A DNA stretch of 64,000 nucleotides from an uncultured bacterium (GTDB lineage Bacteria; Planctomycetota; Phycisphaerae; Phycisphaerales; SM1A02). The translations under genes and the position numbers were made by a program. The stretch spans positions 10,819-74,818 of the forward strand of contig CAIWCL010000123.1 of the NCBI GenBank assembly GCA_903911205.1, read 5' to 3'. Below, in pieces: positions 52,923 through 61,993 of this stretch. Each line of letters opens with the position of its first letter. The stretch's first letter is position 1. The notes under the pieces are model-generated. The model did not search any database, was not told the DNA's origin, and worked only from the letters and a program-made list of their open reading frames with translations.

Positions 52923-55223
52923 ATGAGTGCTCCCCACACGCCTACCTCTGCGACCTCGGAGAGAGGCCCGGCCACATCCACCACCGTTCGCGTTGTCGCC
53001 GTGGAGGGGATGCACTGCGCGGCGTGTGCAACGAAGGTTGAAAAGGCGCTTCGTGCAGATGCTGGGGTTGCTGCGGCGGACGTCGCGTTTGCAACACGTG
53101 TCGCCCGCATTGTTTTTGATCCGTCGCGTACGACGCCCGAACTCCTCGCGCGACGGGTGAAATCCGCTGGATTTCGGCTCGCGATGGATCGAGATCCCGC
53201 GGCGCGCGCGGCAGCGGAGTCGCGAGCGTTGGTCGATCTGCGGCATCGTTTCATTGTCGGTGCAGTACTGTCACTCCCACTCGCGTTCATCGCGATGACG
53301 CATGGTTCGGTTGCGTGGCTCGCGGGCGAAGTTGCCGCATGGGTGCAATTCGCGCTCGCCACTCCGGTGTTTTTTTGGTGCGGTTGGCCGATCCATCGCG
53401 CAGCGCTTCAACGAGCTCGGCATTTCAGCACCGACATGCACACGCTTGTTTCACTCGGAACGACCGTTGCATACGGCGCGAGTGTGTGGGCACTGATCGC
53501 GACGACTCCATCGCACGCGGCGCATCTGTCGCATCTTTGGTTCGAGGCTGCGGCGATCATTCTCGTCTTCGTGTTGCTCGGTCGATTGCTCGAGGCGCGT
53601 GCGACGGCGCGAGCAAGCGACGCGATTCGCGCCCTTGGAGCATTGGTCGTGCCGTTGGTTCGTGTGATCGAAATCGATAGCGCGCGCGAGACCGAGCGCG
53701 AGATGCCTGTCGAACTCGTGACTCCCGGCATGCGGGTTCGTATTCGTCCGGGCGAGCGCGTTCCCGTTGATGGCGAAGTTGTCCGGGGCGAAAGCGAAAT
53801 AGACGCGTCGATGCTGACCGGAGAGCCGCTCCCTGTGGTCAAGCGAGCGGGAGATCTGGTTGTTGCTGGCACGATGAATGCACTCGGTGTGCTTGATGTC
53901 GTCGCGACACGCGCATCGAACGATACGGTTCTTGCGCGCGTGATTGTGATGGTCGACGAGGCACAGTCGACAAAGGCGCGGATTGCTCGAACCGCGGATC
54001 GCATCGCCTCGGTCTTCGTGCCTGCGATCCTCGTTGTGTCGTTGATGACATTCGCTGCTTGGATGATGCTCGCCCCAGCGGAGATTCGACTTGCGCGTGG
54101 GCTCGAAGCACTTGTGAGCGTCCTGGTGGTTGCATGTCCCTGCGCATTAGGGCTTGCGACGCCAGTCGCGGTCATGGTCGCGTCAGGGCGCGCCGCGAGT
54201 GAGGGATTTCTCTTTCGAAGCGCTGCAGCGTTCGAAAAACTCGCGATGATCCGCGCGATCGTTTTCGACAAAACTGGCACGCTCACACAGGGTTCGCCGC
54301 GCGTGACGCGGATTCTTCCCGTCGAGGGTGTCCAAGAGGCGACGATCCTCGCTGCGGCTGCATCGGTCGAGCACTCAAGTGAACATCCCGTTGCACGAGG
54401 AATTGTTGAGGCTGCGCACGAGCGAGGTGTACCGTACGAACGTGCGGAGAAGTTTCTCGCGATCGCGGGTGAGGGTGTTGGAGGTGAGGTGCCGAACTCG
54501 AACGCTGCGAGTGGCGTTTCGCGCATCCGCGTCGGTCGGTCTGGGTGGCTTGCGCGTGAAGGCGTGCGTGGACTCCCTGCGGAAGCCGACACGATTTTCA
54601 AAGGTCAACGTGGAGAAACAGTCGTCTGCGTCGCGATCGATACTCGATGTGTGGGTGCCATCGGACTCGAAGATGCCCTCCGGTCCTCCGCGCGTTCTGC
54701 TGTTGCGGAGCTTCAAGCAGACCGGATTGACGCGTGGATCGCAAGCGGTGATGCCGAGCCGGCGGTGCTGCGCGTGGCAGCCGAATTGGGGATTGCGCCT
54801 CATCGCGCCAAGTCCGGGCTGACACCCGAGTCGAAAGCGGAGCTTCTTCGAGAGCTGAAAGCGCTCACGCCGATCGCATTCGTCGGCGATGGAATCAACG
54901 ACGCAGTTGCGCTCGCGGCGGCGGATGCCGGAATCGCCATGTCATCGGGTACCGATGTCGCGAAAGCGAGTGCCGATGTGGTGTTGGTCACACAAGATCT
55001 CTCGGCCATCGTGCGCGCCCTTCGACTTTCGCGCGCGACACTGCGTGTCATTCGACAGAATCTTGCCTGGGCGTTTGGCTACAACGTGATCTTGATCCCG
55101 CTCGCAGCGGGGGCGTTGTATCCATGGACCGGCGCGATGCTGCCGCCTGTGTTCGCAAGCGCTGCGATGGCGATCTCCAGTGTGACGGTCGTTCTGAATA
55201 GCCTTCGACTCCGCCGCGCGTAA
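52923..55223 (+). CDS. copA: copper-translocating P1B-type ATPase
   Basis: HMA domain [22 protein letters not shown], the CPC motif ([12 protein letters not shown]), DKTGTLT, and [14 protein letters not shown]. Confidence 0.9.
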
Positions 55224-55249
55224 GCGCAATTCGGAATGTGCGAGCTTTC

Positions 55250-58200
55250 TCAGGCCGCGTTGCCAATGGGTTGTGTCGGCACGCCTTCGTAACGCGTCTC
55301 TGGCGGGAGAACTTCGCGCTTCATGACCACGGAGTGTGGTTCCACGATCGCGCCGCGGCCGACGCGTGCGCCGTAAAGAAGCACGGTATTTGCACCGACC
55401 GTTGCGCCATCTTCGATAAAAACGTGATCAACTTTGAGGACGCGATCTTCGAAGGTATGCGCTTGGAAGAGCGCTTGGACTGTGACGTCGTCACCGAAGT
55501 GCAGCATGTCGGGATCGACCACGTGCGAGAAACCGCTTCCCAGAAGGGCACGCTTTCCGATGCGGCATCCCATGAGGCGAAGGAACGCGACGAGGAGCAG
55601 TGTTCCTTCCAGCAAAGCAAGCGGCTTGGAGGCCCACATGCCCCACATGACATAGAGGTAGTCCCATCGACTGCACCAACAACTCCAGAGGCCGTGCGTG
55701 GCGGGCTTGACCCGACCGATCAGGAGCCACTTCAAGAGAAGCACGCTTCCCGCGAGTGTTGCGAATGCTGCGAACAGCACCAGCGGAAGCCACAAGAATC
55801 GGAAGGTCCATGGATTCGCCGTTCGCGCTGCGATTTCAAGGACTCGGTAGACAACCAACGCAACGAACACCGGACCAATTGGCAGGGCGAAGCGCGCGAT
55901 TTCCCACATCCATCGGTTGACACGGCGCACAAGCGCGGGCTCGTGTGTCCATGCACGCGGCATCTCGACGATTTCACGCTTCGGGAGTCGGAAGATCGGA
56001 TGACCGAACCACGACGCGCCCGCTTCATCGGGAAGGCCATCGCCTCGCGTCGAAATACCAACGAGCGTTTCGCGGGCAAGACGCGTGCCTGATGGAAGAA
56101 CCGCATGATTCCCGACGAAACACGACGATTCAAGCCTGACAGGCTCGATCGTTGCGGTTCCCGCGTGCAGTCGCGGGCCACCGAGGTAGATCCCATCGGC
56201 GAAGAATGTCTCGCGTCCGATGTTGACCGTCGATGGAATCACATCGGTCACCGTCGAAATCTCACAACCGCGACCAATGCGTGCGCCTGCGAGGTTGAGC
56301 CACATCGGCCACATGATGGTGCCGGAGAGCCATTTTCCCGCGCCTTCGACAAGCATCGATTGCAGCGACATGCGAAGGCTCGCGATACTCCCGAGCGCAT
56401 AGGCGCCCCGTGGCGGCTTTCCAAGCGCACGAACGAGAAGCGCTTGAAGGAGCACCGTCACGATACCCGCGCAGATCGTCGCGCCCGCAATGCGCCCAAG
56501 CCCACTGGGTGTGGGAAACAGGGCGTCCGCGGATCCGTAGAGGTTTTCATGCACTGTGGATGCGGTCGTCCCGAACGCAGGGAGCAGTCCGAAGAGTGCT
56601 CCTGCGATCGACCATGGCGCGAGAAGGATTCCGACGATCACTGCGAAGAGCGCGAGTCCCACGGCAGCTCGCAGCAGTGGCGAAGGTGGAGCGGCGACTG
56701 CGGGCGGTGATGGCGCGTTGGCGAGTCTTTCCGCGGAAACGCCGTCGAGGAGCGCATGCGCATGTACGACGCCCGGCTGCAGATTTGAGAGCGCGCGAAG
56801 AATGCTGCCTTCACCGAGTTCAGCACCGACAGAAAGCCCGGCGCGCGTCTCGAGTGTCGCGCCCCGGCGCACCGTGACAGGCCCGACAACGATGGCGCCC
56901 GCCTCGAGTTCGAGGGCGCGTAAGCACGCGTCTTGCCCAATGGTTGCATCATCTTCAAGCGTGATGAGATCCCAACCGCCATCGGTGAGGCGTACTCCCC
57001 GATGGATGTGCACATTCCGTCCGATTTGAGCACCAAGAAGACGCAGCGCATGCGGCGCGAGGCCAATCGCTTCAAGCATCTCCCACGGCGCAAGCGATAC
57101 GAGTCGAACCACCATCCAATGTCGGAGGTGCCAGCCCGAAAACGCGCGTACGCGCATCGGTTGGTAGCGGCCGATGAGGATCCACTTCGCCGCGAGTCCG
57201 ATGGCGGTCGTCAGAGCTGTGTAGGCAACGAGTGACGCGCCTACGAGGAGCGCCGCTGCGACGAGAGCCTGCAAACTGTCGAGCGAAGCATGCTCGAGCT
57301 GTTCACCAACGCTCGGAATCCAGAGCAGTTGCGCGATTGCGAGCATCATGCACGCGAGAAAAGCCGTCTGTGCGAAGGTGAAAAGGACGGGGCGAGCGAC
57401 TCCAGTCGTTGGAGAGGCGTGCGTCGTTCCAACGGTGTCTCCGCGAGGCGCGCTCGTACTCGCACTTCGCAAGCGCGCTTCGTCGATCGCTTGCGCGATG
57501 GCGCGCGCTGTTCGGTGTTCGTAGGCGATACGCACGGTGACGGCGCGGGTGAGTGCATCGGTGCGAAGTCGTGAGATCGCGATCGCGATGGTGAGCGAGT
57601 CGAGGCCGAGGTCATCGAAGAGGTCGTCGTCGATCGAAACGAGTTGCGCATCGTTTGGGTGACGCGCGTCGCTTTGGCGAGACTTCGGCGAGTCGGTCCG
57701 CAGATCGGTCCGCTCGCTCGCGCTACTTTCGCGCCCAAGGACTGAGGCGAGTGCCGCCGCCACCACGCGCTCTGTGTCGGTCGTGGGCGCCACAATCGTT
57801 CGCTCGCGACCTTCGCACTGCGCGCGTGACAAAAGCGGGAGGCGCTTCCGGTCGATCTTTCCGCCGACCGAACGTGGTATCGCATCGATCGCGGCGATCG
57901 TCGTTGGCACCATGTAGGTGGGAAGTTCGCCAGCGATCGCTTGGCGCAGCGCATCTCCGTCGATGGTGGCACCCGCGCGTGCAACGACATGGGCAACCAG
58001 ACGCGCGCGGGGCGTATTCGCATCCTCGACCGTCGCGGCTGCTTCTAAGACGGTCGCGTGCGCTGCGAGTATCGCTTCGATTGCGCCGAGTTCGACGCGG
58101 TATCCGCGCAACTTCACCTGCGCATCGATGCGGCCGTGATAGTGGAAGTCTCCGTGAGCATCACGATGGACGAGATCGCCGGTGCGATACACACGCCCAA

Positions 58201-59455
58201 GTGTGGGATGGTCGATGAAGCGTTCTTGCGTCGTGCGAGTTTGCCCGCGATATCCGCGCGCTAGCGACGCGCCGCCGACCACGAGTTCACCGTGCGCGTC
58301 GTGCTCAATGACTGGCAAAGATGCATCATCTGGATCAACAACGGCTGCAAAAGAGCCGGGAATGGCGCGACCGATCGTGACAACTTCACCCGCGCGAACA
58401 GTCGAGCGAAGGCATGTCACCGTGCACTCGGTCGGCCCGTAGCCATTCTCGAGTCGACGTCCGCGCGACCAGAGATCGGCAATGTCCGGGGGTAACGCCT
58501 CGCCGCCGACATAGAGGAGGCGAATGGATGGAAGCACACGTTCGGGGTCGTCGCACGCGAGTGTTCGGAGGAGCGTCGGAGGGGGGCAGAGCACGGTGGC
58601 GCGTTGCTCGATCAGCCATGGAACGAGATCGGGCCCGAGTCGCGCAGTCTCGTCGTCCATCACGACGACGGTTCCGCCGACGGCCCACGCGAGCCACATT
58701 TCTTCGACGCTCGAGTCGTAACTCGCACTCGATCCTTGTACGACGCGATCGGTGGAACACAACGCGAATTCGCGGCAATCTCCCTCGACCAGATTCAGGA
58801 GCGAACGATGTTCAATCTCGACGCCCTTTGGCTTTCCCGTTGTTCCGGACGTGTAGATCACGTAGGCGAGATCGTCGGCTGCGGGGCGCGAACGCGGCGC
58901 GGCGTCTTCGTCGGACGTTCGTACGACTTCTGCATCCAGCGCGTCTCTCGAGAGGATCGGAAGGGCTGAGAGACCCCCGAGATCCTGAGAACCCCCGAAA
59001 TCCTGAGAACCCCCGAAATCCTGAGAACCCCCGAAATCCTGAGAACCCCCGAGATTCGGAAATCCCGCGAGTATGTCGTTGGCTCGAGGAGCGTCCGCGA
59101 TCAGCGTGACAGCACCCGCGTCGGCGAGGATCGCAGCGGCTTGCTTCGCAGGAAACGCCGGATCAATCGCAACATAGGCCGCACCCGCGCGCATCGTGCC
59201 GAGGAGCGCGGCGAAGAGCCATGGATCACGGCGGGAGAGCGCAACCGCGACAACCGCGTCACGTGCGGGTCGCCCCCCGAGCGCGCGTCCGACCAATCGA
59301 GCAGCCACATCGGCACGACGATTGAGTTCGGCGTACGACCACGCTGCAACCCGGGGTATCTCGAGTGCGATGGAATCCGGTGCACGCGCGGTCGCGCGAT
59401 CGAAAATCTCAAGCACCGTTGAAGCGGTGCTCGCGCGCGTTTCGTCGGGACTCAT
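55250..59455 (-). CDS. Pls/PosA-type single-module NRPS-like homopoly(amino acid) synthetase (A-T didomain + three TM-flanked LbH-like tandem domains)
   Basis: Adenylation motifs: LAYVIYTSGTTGKPKG, SYDSSVEEMW, GYGPTECTV, GELVVGGASLARGY, YRTGDLV, GRIDAQVKLRGYRVELGAIE and GGKIDRKRL. Carrier motif FDDLGLDSLTIA. No C, E or TE domain. Three repeats follow, each a hydrophobic helix pair plus a hexapeptide-like module headed by KWILIGRYQP...LRLLGAQIGRNVHI, KWLSGT...LNLAGARIGRGCEI or KWLLIGRVKP...LRLMGCRIGKRALL. Start at MSPDETR (59455), in ATGA overlap with the SET gene stop. Confidence 0.85.
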   Translation of the reverse strand: MSPDETRASTASTVLEIFDRATARAPDSIALEIPRVAAWSYAELNRRADVAARLVGRALGGRPARDAVVAVALSRRDPWLFAALLGTMRAGAAYVAIDPAFPAKQAAAILADAGAVTLIADAPRANDILAGFPNLGGSQDFGGSQDFGGSQDFGGSQDLGGLSALPILSRDALDAEVVRTSDEDAAPRSRPAADDLAYVIYTSGTTGKPKGVEIEHRSLLNLVEGDCREFALCSTDRVVQGSSASYDSSVEEMWLAWAVGGTVVVMDDETARLGPDLVPWLIEQRATVLCPPPTLLRTLACDDPERVLPSIRLLYVGGEALPPDIADLWSRGRRLENGYGPTECTVTCLRSTVRAGEVVTIGRAIPGSFAAVVDPDDASLPVIEHDAHGELVVGGASLARGYRGQTRTTQERFIDHPTLGRVYRTGDLVHRDAHGDFHYHGRIDAQVKLRGYRVELGAIEAILAAHATVLEAAATVEDANTPRARLVAHVVARAGATIDGDALRQAIAGELPTYMVPTTIAAIDAIPRSVGGKIDRKRLPLLSRAQCEGRERTIVAPTTDTERVVAAALASVLGRESSASERTDLRTDSPKSRQSDARHPNDAQLVSIDDDLFDDLGLDSLTIAIAISRLRTDALTRAVTVRIAYEHRTARAIAQAIDEARLRSASTSAPRGDTVGTTHASPTTGVARPVLFTFAQTAFLACMMLAIAQLLWIPSVGEQLEHASLDSLQALVAAALLVGASLVAYTALTTAIGLAAKWILIGRYQPMRVRAFSGWHLRHWMVVRLVSLAPWEMLEAIGLAPHALRLLGAQIGRNVHIHRGVRLTDGGWDLITLEDDATIGQDACLRALELEAGAIVVGPVTVRRGATLETRAGLSVGAELGEGSILRALSNLQPGVVHAHALLDGVSAERLANAPSPPAVAAPPSPLLRAAVGLALFAVIVGILLAPWSIAGALFGLLPAFGTTASTVHENLYGSADALFPTPSGLGRIAGATICAGIVTVLLQALLVRALGKPPRGAYALGSIASLRMSLQSMLVEGAGKWLSGTIMWPMWLNLAGARIGRGCEISTVTDVIPSTVNIGRETFFADGIYLGGPRLHAGTATIEPVRLESSCFVGNHAVLPSGTRLARETLVGISTRGDGLPDEAGASWFGHPIFRLPKREIVEMPRAWTHEPALVRRVNRWMWEIARFALPIGPVFVALVVYRVLEIAARTANPWTFRFLWLPLVLFAAFATLAGSVLLLKWLLIGRVKPATHGLWSCWCSRWDYLYVMWGMWASKPLALLEGTLLLVAFLRLMGCRIGKRALLGSGFSHVVDPDMLHFGDDVTVQALFQAHTFEDRVLKVDHVFIEDGATVGANTVLLYGARVGRGAIVEPHSVVMKREVLPPETRYEGVPTQPIGNAA
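58979..59050 (-). repeat. in-frame 18-bp tandem repeat x4 encoding (GGSQDF)4 inside the adenylation domain
   Basis: gagaacccccgaaatcct units. They translate on the minus strand to GGSQDFGGSQDFGGSQDFGGSQDL, between the A2 region and the A3 motif LAYVIYTSGTTGKPKG. Confidence 0.9.
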
Positions 59456-60240
59456 ACGCGCGAAGGCACGCCACCCGCTGGTTGCTCGACGGTGCTCTTG
59501 GTGAGCGAATCGAGGATGCGCAGGATGTGCGGCGCGAGGTGTGTGCGACGCACCTGCTGCTCGCGCGGCGCGAGGTACAGGAAGCCTTGGACTTGTCCCA
59601 CGCAGCGCGGGCTTCCGCAGCGGCATTGGAACGGTTCAGCCATGTCCGCTTCGGTTGTCGTGTAGTCGAATGTGATTTCCTCGCCAGCGCGGATCGCATT
59701 GCGTGCGTAGAGCGCGTCGCCCTCGATGCGCGCGACGGGATCGCACGAATGGTTGAGGAAACGCCAAGGATGACGCAGGCGCATCTCTTCATCGGGAAGA
59801 TCGCCATCTGCTTCAACGTGGCGACCTGCGTCGATCTGGATCGAGTATCGCGTTGGTTGCTTTTGCACGCGTCCACTGATCGTGAGGATGCGCTCTCCGC
59901 GCGCAAGATCGCGCGTGGCGTACAGCGCGGCTCCCTGCGGGGTATCGCGGACGAGCACGGAGAAGGTCGAGACGATCGGGGTGTTTCTGTTTGTCACGGT
60001 CGGAGTCCGCGAGAGTGGAAACGCGAAGCGTACAACATCCAACGTCTCGTTGGAATAGTTGTGTGGTTGTTCGATGAAGTCTCTTTCGTGTCGGAGTGCT
60101 CGCTCGGCATTCGAGTCATGCGGCATTCGAGTCGGGAATATTCGAGTCGGGGGTATTCGAGCTGGGGGCATTCGAGCAATGCAGCAGTCGAGGAACGTGA
60201 TCGTTGAATCGTTCCACAACTCCATGTCTCGGCAGCACAC
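59452..60240 (-). CDS. SET-domain (lysine methyltransferase fold) protein
   Basis: YATRDLARGERIL, RFLNHSCDPV, EEITFDY, and the post-SET-like cysteine cluster FQCRCGSPRCVG. Start is uncertain (60240, 60225 or 60126) because the 5' end runs through a 15/16-bp repeat block. Confidence 0.8.
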   Translation of the reverse strand: MCCRDMELWNDSTITFLDCCIARMPPARIPPTRIFPTRMPHDSNAERALRHERDFIEQPHNYSNETLDVVRFAFPLSRTPTVTNRNTPIVSTFSVLVRDTPQGAALYATRDLARGERILTISGRVQKQPTRYSIQIDAGRHVEADGDLPDEEMRLRHPWRFLNHSCDPVARIEGDALYARNAIRAGEEITFDYTTTEADMAEPFQCRCGSPRCVGQVQGFLYLAPREQQVRRTHLAPHILRILDSLTKSTVEQPAGGVPSRV

Positions 60241-60288
60241 GGTTGGCCGTCGACGACCGTTCCGCCCCAGCCGTTCAGCCCCAACCGT

Positions 60289-61110
60289 TCAGCCCCGCCG
60301 AACAGCGATCAATTCCAAGACCGTTGGCGTCACGAAGATCGACGCCGGTTGCCGTTCGGCTTCTTCAAGCGCTCGGAGCACCCCTTCGCCCCAAGTCTGG
60401 TCGCGCACGCCCAGATCGACAAGTCTCGGCACATTCGTCCGGACGAACCCGGCAGGCCAACGCCAGAGCCGTTCGTTGGGTCGCGCCGCAAAGCCAATGG
60501 GCCGAGCGGAAACCAGTTCAAATCCCTCCTCGACAAGGATCTGTGGCAATGCGCGGGCGATGTCGGGTTCGCCGCCTTGCGCGCGCCAACTCTCGTAGAC
60601 AGCCTCCACAAACGAGTGAATTTCGACGCGCTGTGGGAGTAGGCCATAGGTCGAGTACGCGTGGTATTCGTGCAGGATCAGGCGGCCGCCTGGTCGAAGT
60701 GCCTCGGCGACCGATCGGACGAGCCGTCGAACATCGGGCACAAAGCAGGCGACCCATCGGCACCACGCGGCATCGAGATGGTGTACGGGAAGGGGGCCGG
60801 CCATGAGATCGGCCTCCATCGGCTTGATCCAGTCGTGTCCAGCGTTTCGTGCGGCTTGGGCGAGGACGTCAAGAAACCGTCGACTCCGTTCGATCGCGTA
60901 CACCTCGCCGGTCGGGCCGACGAGTCGAGCAAGGTCGACGGACGCGAACCCGGGCCCGGCACCGATGTCGGCAACACGGGCGCCGCGTCCGATTCCGGCG
61001 GCATGCCACGCGCGGTGGACTTCCTCTTGCCAAATCGAATGCTGAAAAGCAAGACGTTCGATTTCCGCGTCGTGGGTGCCAAGGACGTAGTCGCGGTCTC
61101 CAGTAGACAT
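60289..61110 (-). CDS. class I SAM-dependent methyltransferase
   Basis: Motif I VADIGAGPGFASVDLA, a post-I acidic residue (YAIERS), and LRPGGRLILHEY. Start at MSTGDRDY (Met 32 of the track ORF). Confidence 0.8.
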   Translation of the reverse strand: MSTGDRDYVLGTHDAEIERLAFQHSIWQEEVHRAWHAAGIGRGARVADIGAGPGFASVDLARLVGPTGEVYAIERSRRFLDVLAQAARNAGHDWIKPMEADLMAGPLPVHHLDAAWCRWVACFVPDVRRLVRSVAEALRPGGRLILHEYHAYSTYGLLPQRVEIHSFVEAVYESWRAQGGEPDIARALPQILVEEGFELVSARPIGFAARPNERLWRWPAGFVRTNVPRLVDLGVRDQTWGEGVLRALEEAERQPASIFVTPTVLELIAVRRG

Positions 61111-61201
61111 GCCTGCGTTGTACCGGACGCGGAGGTCCCCCGTGGAAATCCGGCAATCGGAATCGACAAACCGCCGATGAGGTGCAAACGAATCAGACGC
61201 C

Positions 61202-61993
61202 ATGTCGCCTGCACCAGCCCACTCGCCCGTCCTTCAAGCGCGCCTCGCGATTTCGCTCGCATGGGTGGCGGGTTACACCAACATCATCGCCGTGCTCGTC
61301 TGTGGTCATGTCGCGAGTCATGTCACCGGTCATGCGAGCCAGTTGGGACAGGCGGCCGCCGGTGGCGATTGGAGTCTCGCGCTCTTCGTGGGTGCCATTC
61401 TTGCGGCGTTCTTCTTGGGAGCGGTCCTCTCCGCATGTGCGACGGAGATTGCTCGTTGGCGGGGCGTCCGATCGGTCTACGTTGCTCCAGCGGCGCTTGA
61501 ACTCGCGCTCCTTGGAGTCTTTGCGCAGTTGGTTCGTTTGCACGATCCGACCGAAATCGAATCGGGCGCGATGCTCTGGTGGATGACGATCGTTGCATCG
61601 ATCGCGATGGGGCTACAGAACGCCACCATTACCCGAATCTCTGGCGGCGTGGTTCGAACGACACACCTCACGGGCGTACTCACAGACCTCGGACTTGAGT
61701 CCGTACGCCGCGCGATGGAACGTCTCGCCTTTCGAACCGGAAAGAGTGAACGAGATCCGGAGACGCAAGCGCAATCGGAGGAGTCGGCGCGGTGGAGGCT
61801 TCTCCTCCTTGCATCGATTTTCGGCGCATTCGTTTTTGGATCCGCATGCGGTGTGCTGGCCTTCAACGCCTTCGCTCATTGGAGCATGCTGCCTCCGATG
61901 GCGCTTCTTGGTTGGGTGATCGCGGTCGACATTCGACGTCCGATCGCGACGAACCTCACGGTAGCGTCATCCGAACGCACCACGAGGATGTGA
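61202..61993 (+). CDS. YoaK/DUF1275-family membrane protein
   Basis: Multi-TM protein with GYTNIIAVLVCGHVASHVTGHASQLG and MGLQNATITRISGGVVRTTHLTGVLTDLG, the signature pattern of DUF1275. Divergent from the methyltransferase operon. Confidence 0.75.
   Translation: MSPAPAHSPVLQARLAISLAWVAGYTNIIAVLVCGHVASHVTGHASQLGQAAAGGDWSLALFVGAILAAFFLGAVLSACATEIARWRGVRSVYVAPAALELALLGVFAQLVRLHDPTEIESGAMLWWMTIVASIAMGLQNATITRISGGVVRTTHLTGVLTDLGLESVRRAMERLAFRTGKSERDPETQAQSEESARWRLLLLASIFGAFVFGSACGVLAFNAFAHWSMLPPMALLGWVIAVDIRRPIATNLTVASSERTTRM

Follow-up and report, generated by a model that had tools for sequence, protein, structure and literature searches.

A SET-domain gene coupled to a divergent Pls/PosA-type synthetase in Phycisphaerae and other bacterial lineages

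What does a SET-domain methyltransferase do beside an enzyme of the type that builds cationic poly(amino acid)s? The question is raised by a stretch of 64,000 nucleotides (the window, meaning the whole of the DNA analysed) from contig CAIWCL010000123.1 of an uncultured bacterium of the Phycisphaerales. On its minus strand, a 1401-residue single-module synthetase (55250..59455), similar in layout to the epsilon-poly-L-lysine synthetase Pls of Streptomyces albulus, directly follows a SET-domain gene (probably 59452..60042). To our knowledge, nature makes cationic homo-poly(amino acid)s by no other route than Pls-type synthetases, and all members whose characterisation we know of work alone and make unmodified polymers. 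epsilon-Polylysine is a food preservative, and related polymers are antimicrobial and cell-penetrating. The bacterial roles of SET-domain enzymes are little characterised. Judged by gene order across homologues, SET and synthetase appear as a conserved, translationally coupled two-gene module, present at about 25 loci in several bacterial lineages.

A SET gene lies directly upstream of the synthetase at 17 of the 20 genome loci of the Phycisphaerae clade that include upstream DNA. The closest relatives of the synthetase (55-76% identity) all come from metagenome-assembled genomes (MAGs) of Planctomycetota/Phycisphaerae. An Acidimicrobiales MAG (L022) also carries a SET gene upstream of a synthetase, here 40% identical to that of the window. 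A metagenome scan seeded with the SET family revealed five more loci (L065, L066, L068, L072 and L073) in which a SET gene directly precedes a synthetase of the window's code type, DSECYGGVTK; their SET proteins are 38-41% and their synthetases 30-45% identical to those of the window. None of copA, DUF1275 and the class I methyltransferase, which surround the pair in the window, was found near these five. Conservation of the pair among homologues, which the preliminary description had left to a survey, is therefore borne out both within the Phycisphaerae clade and in other lineages with different flanks.

The coupling of the two genes is similarly widespread. The SET stop codon overlaps the synthetase start codon as ATGA exactly at 59452..59455 on the minus strand, as first described, and a four-base A/GTGA overlap occurs in 17 of the 25 linked loci, including the distant L072; it is maintained down to 41% SET identity and is also present in contig P0003. 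Linked loci that do not have it mostly show a gap of 6-13 nt or a 14-nt overlap, while the gap at L007 is about 700 nt. In a neighbour-joining tree of 94 SET sequences (no support values), all 26 synthetase-linked SETs fall into one clade, which includes only two or three SETs without such a link (L074, L077, L146). No linked SET occurs in the sister clade or farther out in the tree, and standalone SETs of 42-49% identity have unrelated surroundings. Because the flanks are unrelated, the linked SETs form a single clade and the overlap is kept, these patterns point to a dedicated synthetase-associated SET subfamily rather than to mere inherited gene order.

The SET protein itself matches PF00856 with an E-value of 4.8e-9 (37 bits; cutoff 22.4). 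The preliminary description placed its gene at 59452..60240; the domain and the stop codon stand, whereas the start (a GTG at 60240) is probably too far upstream, since homologues measure 165-200 residues and conservation begins only near residue 60-80 of that open reading frame. Translation is predicted to begin instead at TTG 60042 (196 residues, the probable coding sequence) or at ATG 60126 (224 residues). The NHSC, FDY and post-SET CxCx4C motifs are invariant in the family alignment (A1). The AlphaFold2 (AF2) model has a predicted local distance difference test score (pLDDT) of 88.9, and 324 SET matches were obtained from the Protein Data Bank (PDB) at E <= 1e-3. Just upstream of the SET core, a segment RFHxRGLRPV(T/P) is conserved at L001, L002, L005, L007, L012, L014, L035, L061 and L062 and is altered in the window, where it reads RFAFPLSRTPTV. 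The segment may represent a peptide at the N-terminus or an element conserved at the nucleotide level.

The synthetase is organized into one adenylation (A) domain, one carrier (T) domain and a membrane-associated C-terminal region. The A domain (residues 18-533, 57857..59404) is matched by the Pfam models AMP-binding (residues 18-402, E 5e-66) and AMP-binding_C, and by the NCBIfam amino-acid adenylation model TIGR01733 at 332 bits, above its cutoff of 317. The carrier domain (residues 606-657, 57485..57640; PF00550, E 1.9e-5) bears its phosphopantetheine serine, S620, in the motif LGLDS. No condensation or thioesterase domain was matched in the synthetase by Pfam or NCBIfam, in which AMP-binding, AMP-binding_C, PP-binding and Hexapep were found; both collections thus agree with the initial assignment of a single A and a single T domain. 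Translation probably does not begin further upstream: an alternative ATG at 59626 was ruled out, as homologues from Phycisphaerae MAGs at 55-76% identity align from residue 1 of the 59455 start.

The C-terminal region (55277..57370) comprises three transmembrane (TM) pairs, each followed by a soluble hexapeptide-repeat (LbH) domain. TIGR02353, the Pls/PosA terminal-domain model of NCBIfam, aligns with it over positions 3-694 of 695 (E 1.7e-97, 327.5-330.3 bits). Hydropathy analysis places six hydrophobic helices in three pairs, at residues 690-708/730-761, 927-945/989-1007 and 1190-1208/1223-1249. The three units are also similar to one another (units 1 and 3, E 5e-10; units 2 and 3, E 7e-4; units 1 and 2, E 0.007). 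Of the two motifs said to head each unit, G[AC][QR]IG[RK] does occur once per soluble segment after each helix pair, at residues 808, 1057 and 1296, whereas KW[IL].[IL]G is confined to units 1 and 3. The PDB holds no solved structure of this region and gave only weak matches to LbH acetyltransferases. The Pls-type architecture proposed at the outset is nevertheless well reproduced by the end-to-end model alignment, the three repeats and the six helices. Pls has the same single A and T domains without condensation or thioesterase domains, the same six TM helices and three hexapeptide-repeat domains, and a colinear TIGR02353 match. The same architecture is found in PosA, the delta-poly-L-ornithine synthetase of Acinetobacter baumannii, which also shares a Gram-negative host with the window enzyme (PMC10522769). 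On these profiles, the window synthetase would represent a divergent subfamily of Pls/PosA-type enzymes.

Which amino acid does this subfamily activate? The Stachelhaus code of the window A domain was read as DSECYGGVTK by GrsA-anchored alignment and motif anchoring. The GrsA numbering was checked with a GrsA sequence, whose canonical positions gave DAWTIAAICK. Since MAFFT, in aligning to GrsA, opened a gap of one column at positions 8 and 9 of the code, anchoring on the YGPTE motif was used instead, which matches the published convention. Of 118 full-length homologues, with identities as low as 43%, 115 have DSECYGGVTK, and the group that carries it is monophyletic with respect to lysine-code enzymes in a neighbour-joining tree (no support values). 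With the same motif routine, distant relatives from Fibrobacterota, Actinomycetes and Kitasatospora yield the lysine code DAESIGTV[IV]K. Members of the DSECYGGVTK subfamily occur in Sphingomonas, Acidobacteria, Gemmataceae, Verrucomicrobia and Phycisphaerae.

The code retains the two residues of diamino-acid pockets, Asp at position 1 and Glu at position 3, both of which are shared with Pls, and the full code matches only an uncharacterised group. In PosA, the Glu at position 3 is likewise present and binds the side-chain cation; PosA differs from the window enzyme at position 2 (Met versus Ser) and at position 7, where an amine-contacting Thr is replaced by Gly. Pls and its lysine-code relatives are set apart from the window synthetase by their code, by TIGR02353 scores of about 647 versus about 330 bits, by an identity of only 26-38%, and by the SET partner seen in the window. 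By this comparison the A domain does not have a lysine code, and lysine is an unlikely substrate of the window synthetase.

A better lead comes from the work of Patel and Gulick (Commun Biol 2023, PMC10522769), who list DSECYGGVTK as an uncharacterised pocket in homologues from Novosphingobium and Bdellovibrionales. The two entries, WP_072382105.1 and OFZ39577.1 (their Supplementary Table 2), have a 10-residue code identical to that of the window, to which they are tied by code and taxonomy rather than by direct alignment. No SET partner was reported for either, and the Sphingomonas locus examined here has MatE upstream and no SET; sphingomonad relatives of the synthetase at about 45% identity are part of our homologue set. 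The Bdellovibrionales A domain activated L-arginine modestly, and the four known diamino substrates gave no higher activity (PMC10522769). L-arginine, or an analogue of similar size, therefore appears to be the best experimental lead for the monomer of the window enzyme.

From the observed domain architecture, code, conserved coupling and dedicated SET clade, we infer polymerisation, the identity of the monomer and the methylated step as follows. In the reading preferred here, which we hold with about equal measures of confidence and doubt, the module combines a divergent Pls/PosA-type synthetase with a SET enzyme that methylates a nucleophile of the pathway, giving a methylated polycation. 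The A domain would adenylate a long-chain cationic amino acid and load it onto the carrier domain. The three membrane-anchored hexapeptide-repeat domains would then repeatedly move the aminoacyl group onto the amine of a free acceptor, as in Pls and PosA, and a cationic oligomer or polymer would result. The cytoplasmic SET protein, using S-adenosylmethionine (SAM), would methylate the pathway nucleophile, more likely in the acceptor or nascent product than in the pool of monomer, so that the end product would be a methylated polycation. The class I methyltransferase could serve as an optional extra tailoring enzyme in one sublineage. A bolder version is doubtful: the dedicated SET clade may have been recruited to a non-ribosomal poly(amino acid) pathway, there to methylate a substrate other than protein, whether the monomer or the isopeptide chain as it grows. 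Freshwater Phycisphaerae and a few further lineages would then produce a natural polycation of an undescribed type whose charge, on quaternary ammonium or sulfonium groups, is permanent.

Several observations weigh against the preferred reading. The match to the Pls/PosA terminal-domain model, although full length, misses the curated cutoff of 423.1 bits, and relatives with the DSECYGGVTK code all score below it as well (313-391 bits). Because the terminal domain falls below this cutoff, polymerase activity of the window subfamily is best regarded as extrapolated. The arginine side chain is not a good nucleophile for isopeptide polymerisation, and Patel and Gulick suspect that the real substrate is a larger, untested analogue suited to polymerisation (PMC10522769). 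Most members of the synthetase subfamily have no adjacent SET gene, as judged at the locus only. The SET proteins, with isoelectric points (pI) of about 6-9, are not notably acidic and bear no mark of polycation binders; an acidic surface as a sign of polycation binding was dropped as uninformative. Lastly, the substrate-binding strands of the SET protein resemble those of BurB, an enzyme that acts on a free amino acid, and this precedent favours methylation at the level of the monomer.

BurB of Burkholderia thailandensis is a SET enzyme that converts free L-methionine to S-methylmethionine (SMM) in the malleicyprol/dimethylsulfoniopropionate (DMSP) pathway (PMC12542666). It is the top PDB match of the window SET by single-sequence search (phmmer, E 1.3e-12, 33% identity) and also the top fold match (Foldseek E 3e-11, TM-score 0.67), with MLL1 and SETD2 at about 5e-9. 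Like the window SET, BurB (also MSMT; PDB 9L4T, 9L4V) is a compact single-domain bacterial SET protein of about 170-195 residues, and the two share the substrate-binding strand, the post-SET cysteines and a His in place of the lysine-channel Tyr. This Tyr, located in a YMFRI-type strand, is retained in MLL1 and in P0231 and P0239, bacterial SETs that resemble lysine methyltransferases, and is His in the window SET family; the window SET thus departs from the aromatic lysine channel of canonical lysine methyltransferases. BurB holds the free amino acid via main-chain atoms of Arg70/Thr73 and Val130/Met132 (PMC12542666). The homologous segments, PTRYSIQID (with the TRYSIQID strand) and TTEADMAEPF (a loop), are the most conserved parts of the window SET family. 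The argument of the preliminary description that SET domains act on lysine amino groups is weakened accordingly, given that the nearest solved relative by both sequence and fold is BurB. The pathway in which BurB acts is linked to thiotemplate chemistry and makes a secondary metabolite, a setting that the window SET may share.

The differences are also considerable. Identity to BurB is 26-33%, the window family carries an 11-residue acidic insertion, and NHSC replaces the LHSC of BurB. No genes resembling burI, burD or burE (SMM decarboxylase, aminotransferase, dehydrogenase) were found in the window flanks or at related loci. Owing to this low identity and to the lack of linked burI/D/E-type genes, the window SET is not filed here as a BurB orthologue. 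BurB serves here as a precedent that compact bacterial SETs can take part in small cationic-product chemistry, with no histone-like protein as target.

This precedent underlies the alternative that survives best, although we consider it unlikely: the SET protein, like BurB, would methylate a free amino acid, and the bulky cationic amino acid so formed would be what the DSECYGGVTK pocket really accepts, so that methylated and possibly quaternary monomers would make up the polymer. Candidate reactions are N-methylation of lysine, ornithine or 2,4-diaminobutyric acid (Dab), or conversion of methionine to S-methylmethionine. In addition to the BurB-like features described above, the roomy pocket, with its small Ser, Gly and Gly plus Tyr and Glu, would suit a bulky cationic head group, and the only tested A domain with this code performed poorly on everything tried other than its modest activity on arginine. 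The position of SET as the first, translationally coupled gene of the pair would also suit a supplier of monomer. The distribution of the code argues otherwise. SET-less relatives from Sphingomonas, Acidobacteria and Myxococcales have an identical code and unrelated neighbours such as MatE, M20 peptidase and CotH, and no code column separates SET-linked from SET-less synthetases. No Sphingomonas or Acidobacteria SET of the window family occurs among 205 SET homologues, which implies that the monomer of those synthetases is made without such a SET enzyme. Moreover, fully methylated amines would be unable to act as nucleophiles in chain growth, and the locus has none of the burI/D/E-like genes.

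Columns that do separate methyltransferase-linked from methyltransferase-less synthetases lie elsewhere. Only R89, W1182 and A1187 discriminate, and none of them belongs to the 10-residue code. W1182 and A1187 are located just before TM5 in the C-terminal region (about 55895-55912). Among methyltransferase-linked synthetases of about four lineages, Trp1182 is present in 19 of 19 and Ala1187 in 18 of 19; in 14 other members (6 without an adjacent methyltransferase and 8 of unexamined context), position 1182 is Val, Ala or Leu and position 1187 is mostly Leu. Because SET-less relatives share the code and the discriminating columns fall outside it, methylation of the acceptor or product would rank slightly above monomer supply. 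The surroundings of SET-less relatives are heterogeneous, with no methyltransferase upstream at L018, L019, L020, L033, L042 and L059. An M20 peptidase (L019:4071-5438) and, in Sphingomonas, a MatE exporter (L058:6621-7928) lie directly upstream and co-directional in two such relatives; these are possible polymer-processing and export partners.

Three basal Phycisphaerales loci, L024, L032 and L043, also have no SET gene. At L024 (151-1593) and L032 (7128-8465), a class I methyltransferase of about 407-480 residues (start uncertain) takes its place directly upstream of the synthetase, co-directional and with a gap of about 25 nt, while L043 (9775-9924) has only a remnant match of 50 residues. 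The L024 protein is about 60% identical to Rv2067c of Mycobacterium tuberculosis (PDB 8HKR; E 1.8e-146), which is reported to be an H3K79 lysine trimethyltransferase with an RRE-like peptide-binding domain (PMC10739865). Such a homologue, with its class I fold and RRE-like domain, is not present in the window. Its occurrence in the SET position is suggestive of replacement by an analogous enzyme. As a proof of integral lysine-type methylation this replacement was downgraded, for the family exceeds 2854 clusters and its members stand in unrelated contexts, not beside such synthetases, in the three other cases examined. Being very large and well conserved across phyla, the Rv2067c-like family may well have a native role in bacteria that has nothing to do with host histones.

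The Rv2067c-like genes are also relevant to another possibility, that the SET enzyme is a protein lysine methyltransferase which acts on the synthetase or on another protein for regulation or protection, the synthetase product being unmethylated. Most characterised SETs target protein lysines, the profile matches of the window SET to MLL, ASH1L, NSD and SETD2 are strong, an Rv2067c-like gene stands directly upstream of the synthetase at L024 and L032, and a stoichiometric partner would fit translational coupling. We nevertheless regard this possibility as improbable. No lysine is specifically conserved in methyltransferase-linked synthetases, so that a methyl-acceptor lysine peculiar to them was discarded as a candidate; the adjacency of Rv2067c-like genes may be coincidence in so large a family; and the window SET departs from canonical enzymes, and resembles BurB, at the channel Tyr.

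Still less probable is that the subfamily does not polymerise at all and instead passes the cationic amino acid, once activated, to an acceptor in the membrane or envelope, for example a lipid head group, with the SET enzyme methylating the added amine. Methylated ornithine lipids are known in Planctomycetes and would provide an analogy. The sub-cutoff terminal domain of the whole subfamily, the poor suitability of arginine for isopeptide polymerisation and the housekeeping-like syntenic setting, which is not a secondary-metabolite island, are all in keeping with such a transfer. No lipid-biosynthesis gene is linked, however, and the synthetase aligns colinearly with the whole of the Pls/PosA terminal model, three repeats and six TM helices included. 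All characterised members of this architecture are polymerases (PMC10522769). Finally, adjacency without any functional link is very improbable: copA, DUF1275, thioredoxin and L31 are also conserved in the Phycisphaerae clade, so that synteny alone is no evidence of function there, but other lineages have the pair between unrelated flanks, its SETs form one clade and its 4-nt overlap persists down to 41% SET identity.

How far does the module extend? The preliminary description proposed an operon of three genes, and three co-directional open reading frames are indeed present on the minus strand, the third being a class I SAM methyltransferase (60289..61110; Methyltransf_11/25). Coupling of SET and synthetase holds, whereas the third member does not fit so readily. 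It is found in 11 of the 17 SET-carrying genome loci of the Phycisphaerae clade and in both close metagenome loci (L061, L062), while at L011 a class I methyltransferase lies downstream and convergent. Given its presence in only about two thirds of the SET-carrying loci and the repeat-rich spacer that separates it from SET, the conserved unit is SET plus synthetase rather than three genes; the methyltransferase tends to stay near the module yet appears dispensable, a facultative neighbour. No close characterised relative of it was found.

The spacer between methyltransferase and SET, 160-245 nt long, contains two tandem repeats identified by Tandem Repeats Finder: a 14-bp repeat of 3.2 copies (60257-60300) and a 15-bp repeat of about 3.5-4.5 copies (60106..60177, minus strand), the latter in the spacer or in the 5' region of SET. 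They could be regulatory sites or the outcome of simple slippage. A consensus scan of 55000-61500 gave no promoter-like site, and its terminator-like sites were not above the frequency in shuffled sequence. A further repeat of 18 bp (4.8 copies, 97% matches; 58966..59052, minus strand) was found by the same program within the synthetase gene, where it encodes (GGSQDF)4, inserted in the A domain as residues 136-159. This insertion lies roughly at the site of the 16-residue insertion of PosA relative to Pls.

On either side, the flanking genes first described, copA (52923..55223, plus strand, convergent with the synthetase) and DUF1275 (61202..61993, plus strand), were both confirmed by profile searches. 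They do not make the locus a self-contained unit, as had been proposed. Within the Phycisphaerae clade only, copA, thioredoxin, L31 and DUF1275 are conserved neighbours throughout, with a convergent copA after the synthetase at about 17 of 19 loci; the locus is part of a syntenic chromosomal region and not an island. The adjacency of copA and DUF1275 is lineage synteny rather than part of the module, and copA was ruled out as a module member because no linked locus outside the Phycisphaerae clade has one. Copper-related genes are nonetheless seen near DSECYGGVTK-type synthetases in separate lineages, with a weak multicopper-oxidase match at L033:8097-9803 and a weak SCO1/SenC match at L042:2808-3434 alongside the copA of the window; this recurring proximity may be chance. 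Genes of sulfotransferase families occur within a few kb upstream of the SET-synthetase pair at two loci outside the Phycisphaerae, namely Sulfotransfer_3 at L066:4587-5276 and an arylsulfotransferase at L022:1764-4388.

Is such a pairing new? PosA was described as a single-gene operon (PMC10522769), unlike the SET-coupled synthetase of the window. In the library searched, no paper pairs a Pls-type (poly-L-lysine) synthetase with a SET domain, in agreement with the initial remark that no described Pls-type locus has one. Apart from the work on BurB, full-text searches likewise revealed no SET enzyme in a bacterial nonribosomal peptide synthetase (NRPS) cluster. The Planctomycetota-like host, put forward as a second novelty, is not one: Pls-type genes in Planctomycetes were already noted in the literature, in the form of a Singulisphaera entry with a diaminopropionate (Dap)-type code. 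What is new is that synthetases of a subfamily with no assigned product are coupled, in a conserved manner, to SETs of one dedicated clade.

If the preferred reading is true, this SET protein would give the Pls-type class its first associated enzyme for tailoring or precursor supply. The product would be a methylated polycation whose charge does not depend on pH and which probably resists proteases. For SET enzymes, this would be the second role, after that of BurB, to be defined in the biosynthesis of small molecules or polymers. For the family as a whole, the SET-synthetase module gives a point of entry to the large DSECYGGVTK subfamily, whose code was listed as uncharacterised in 2023.

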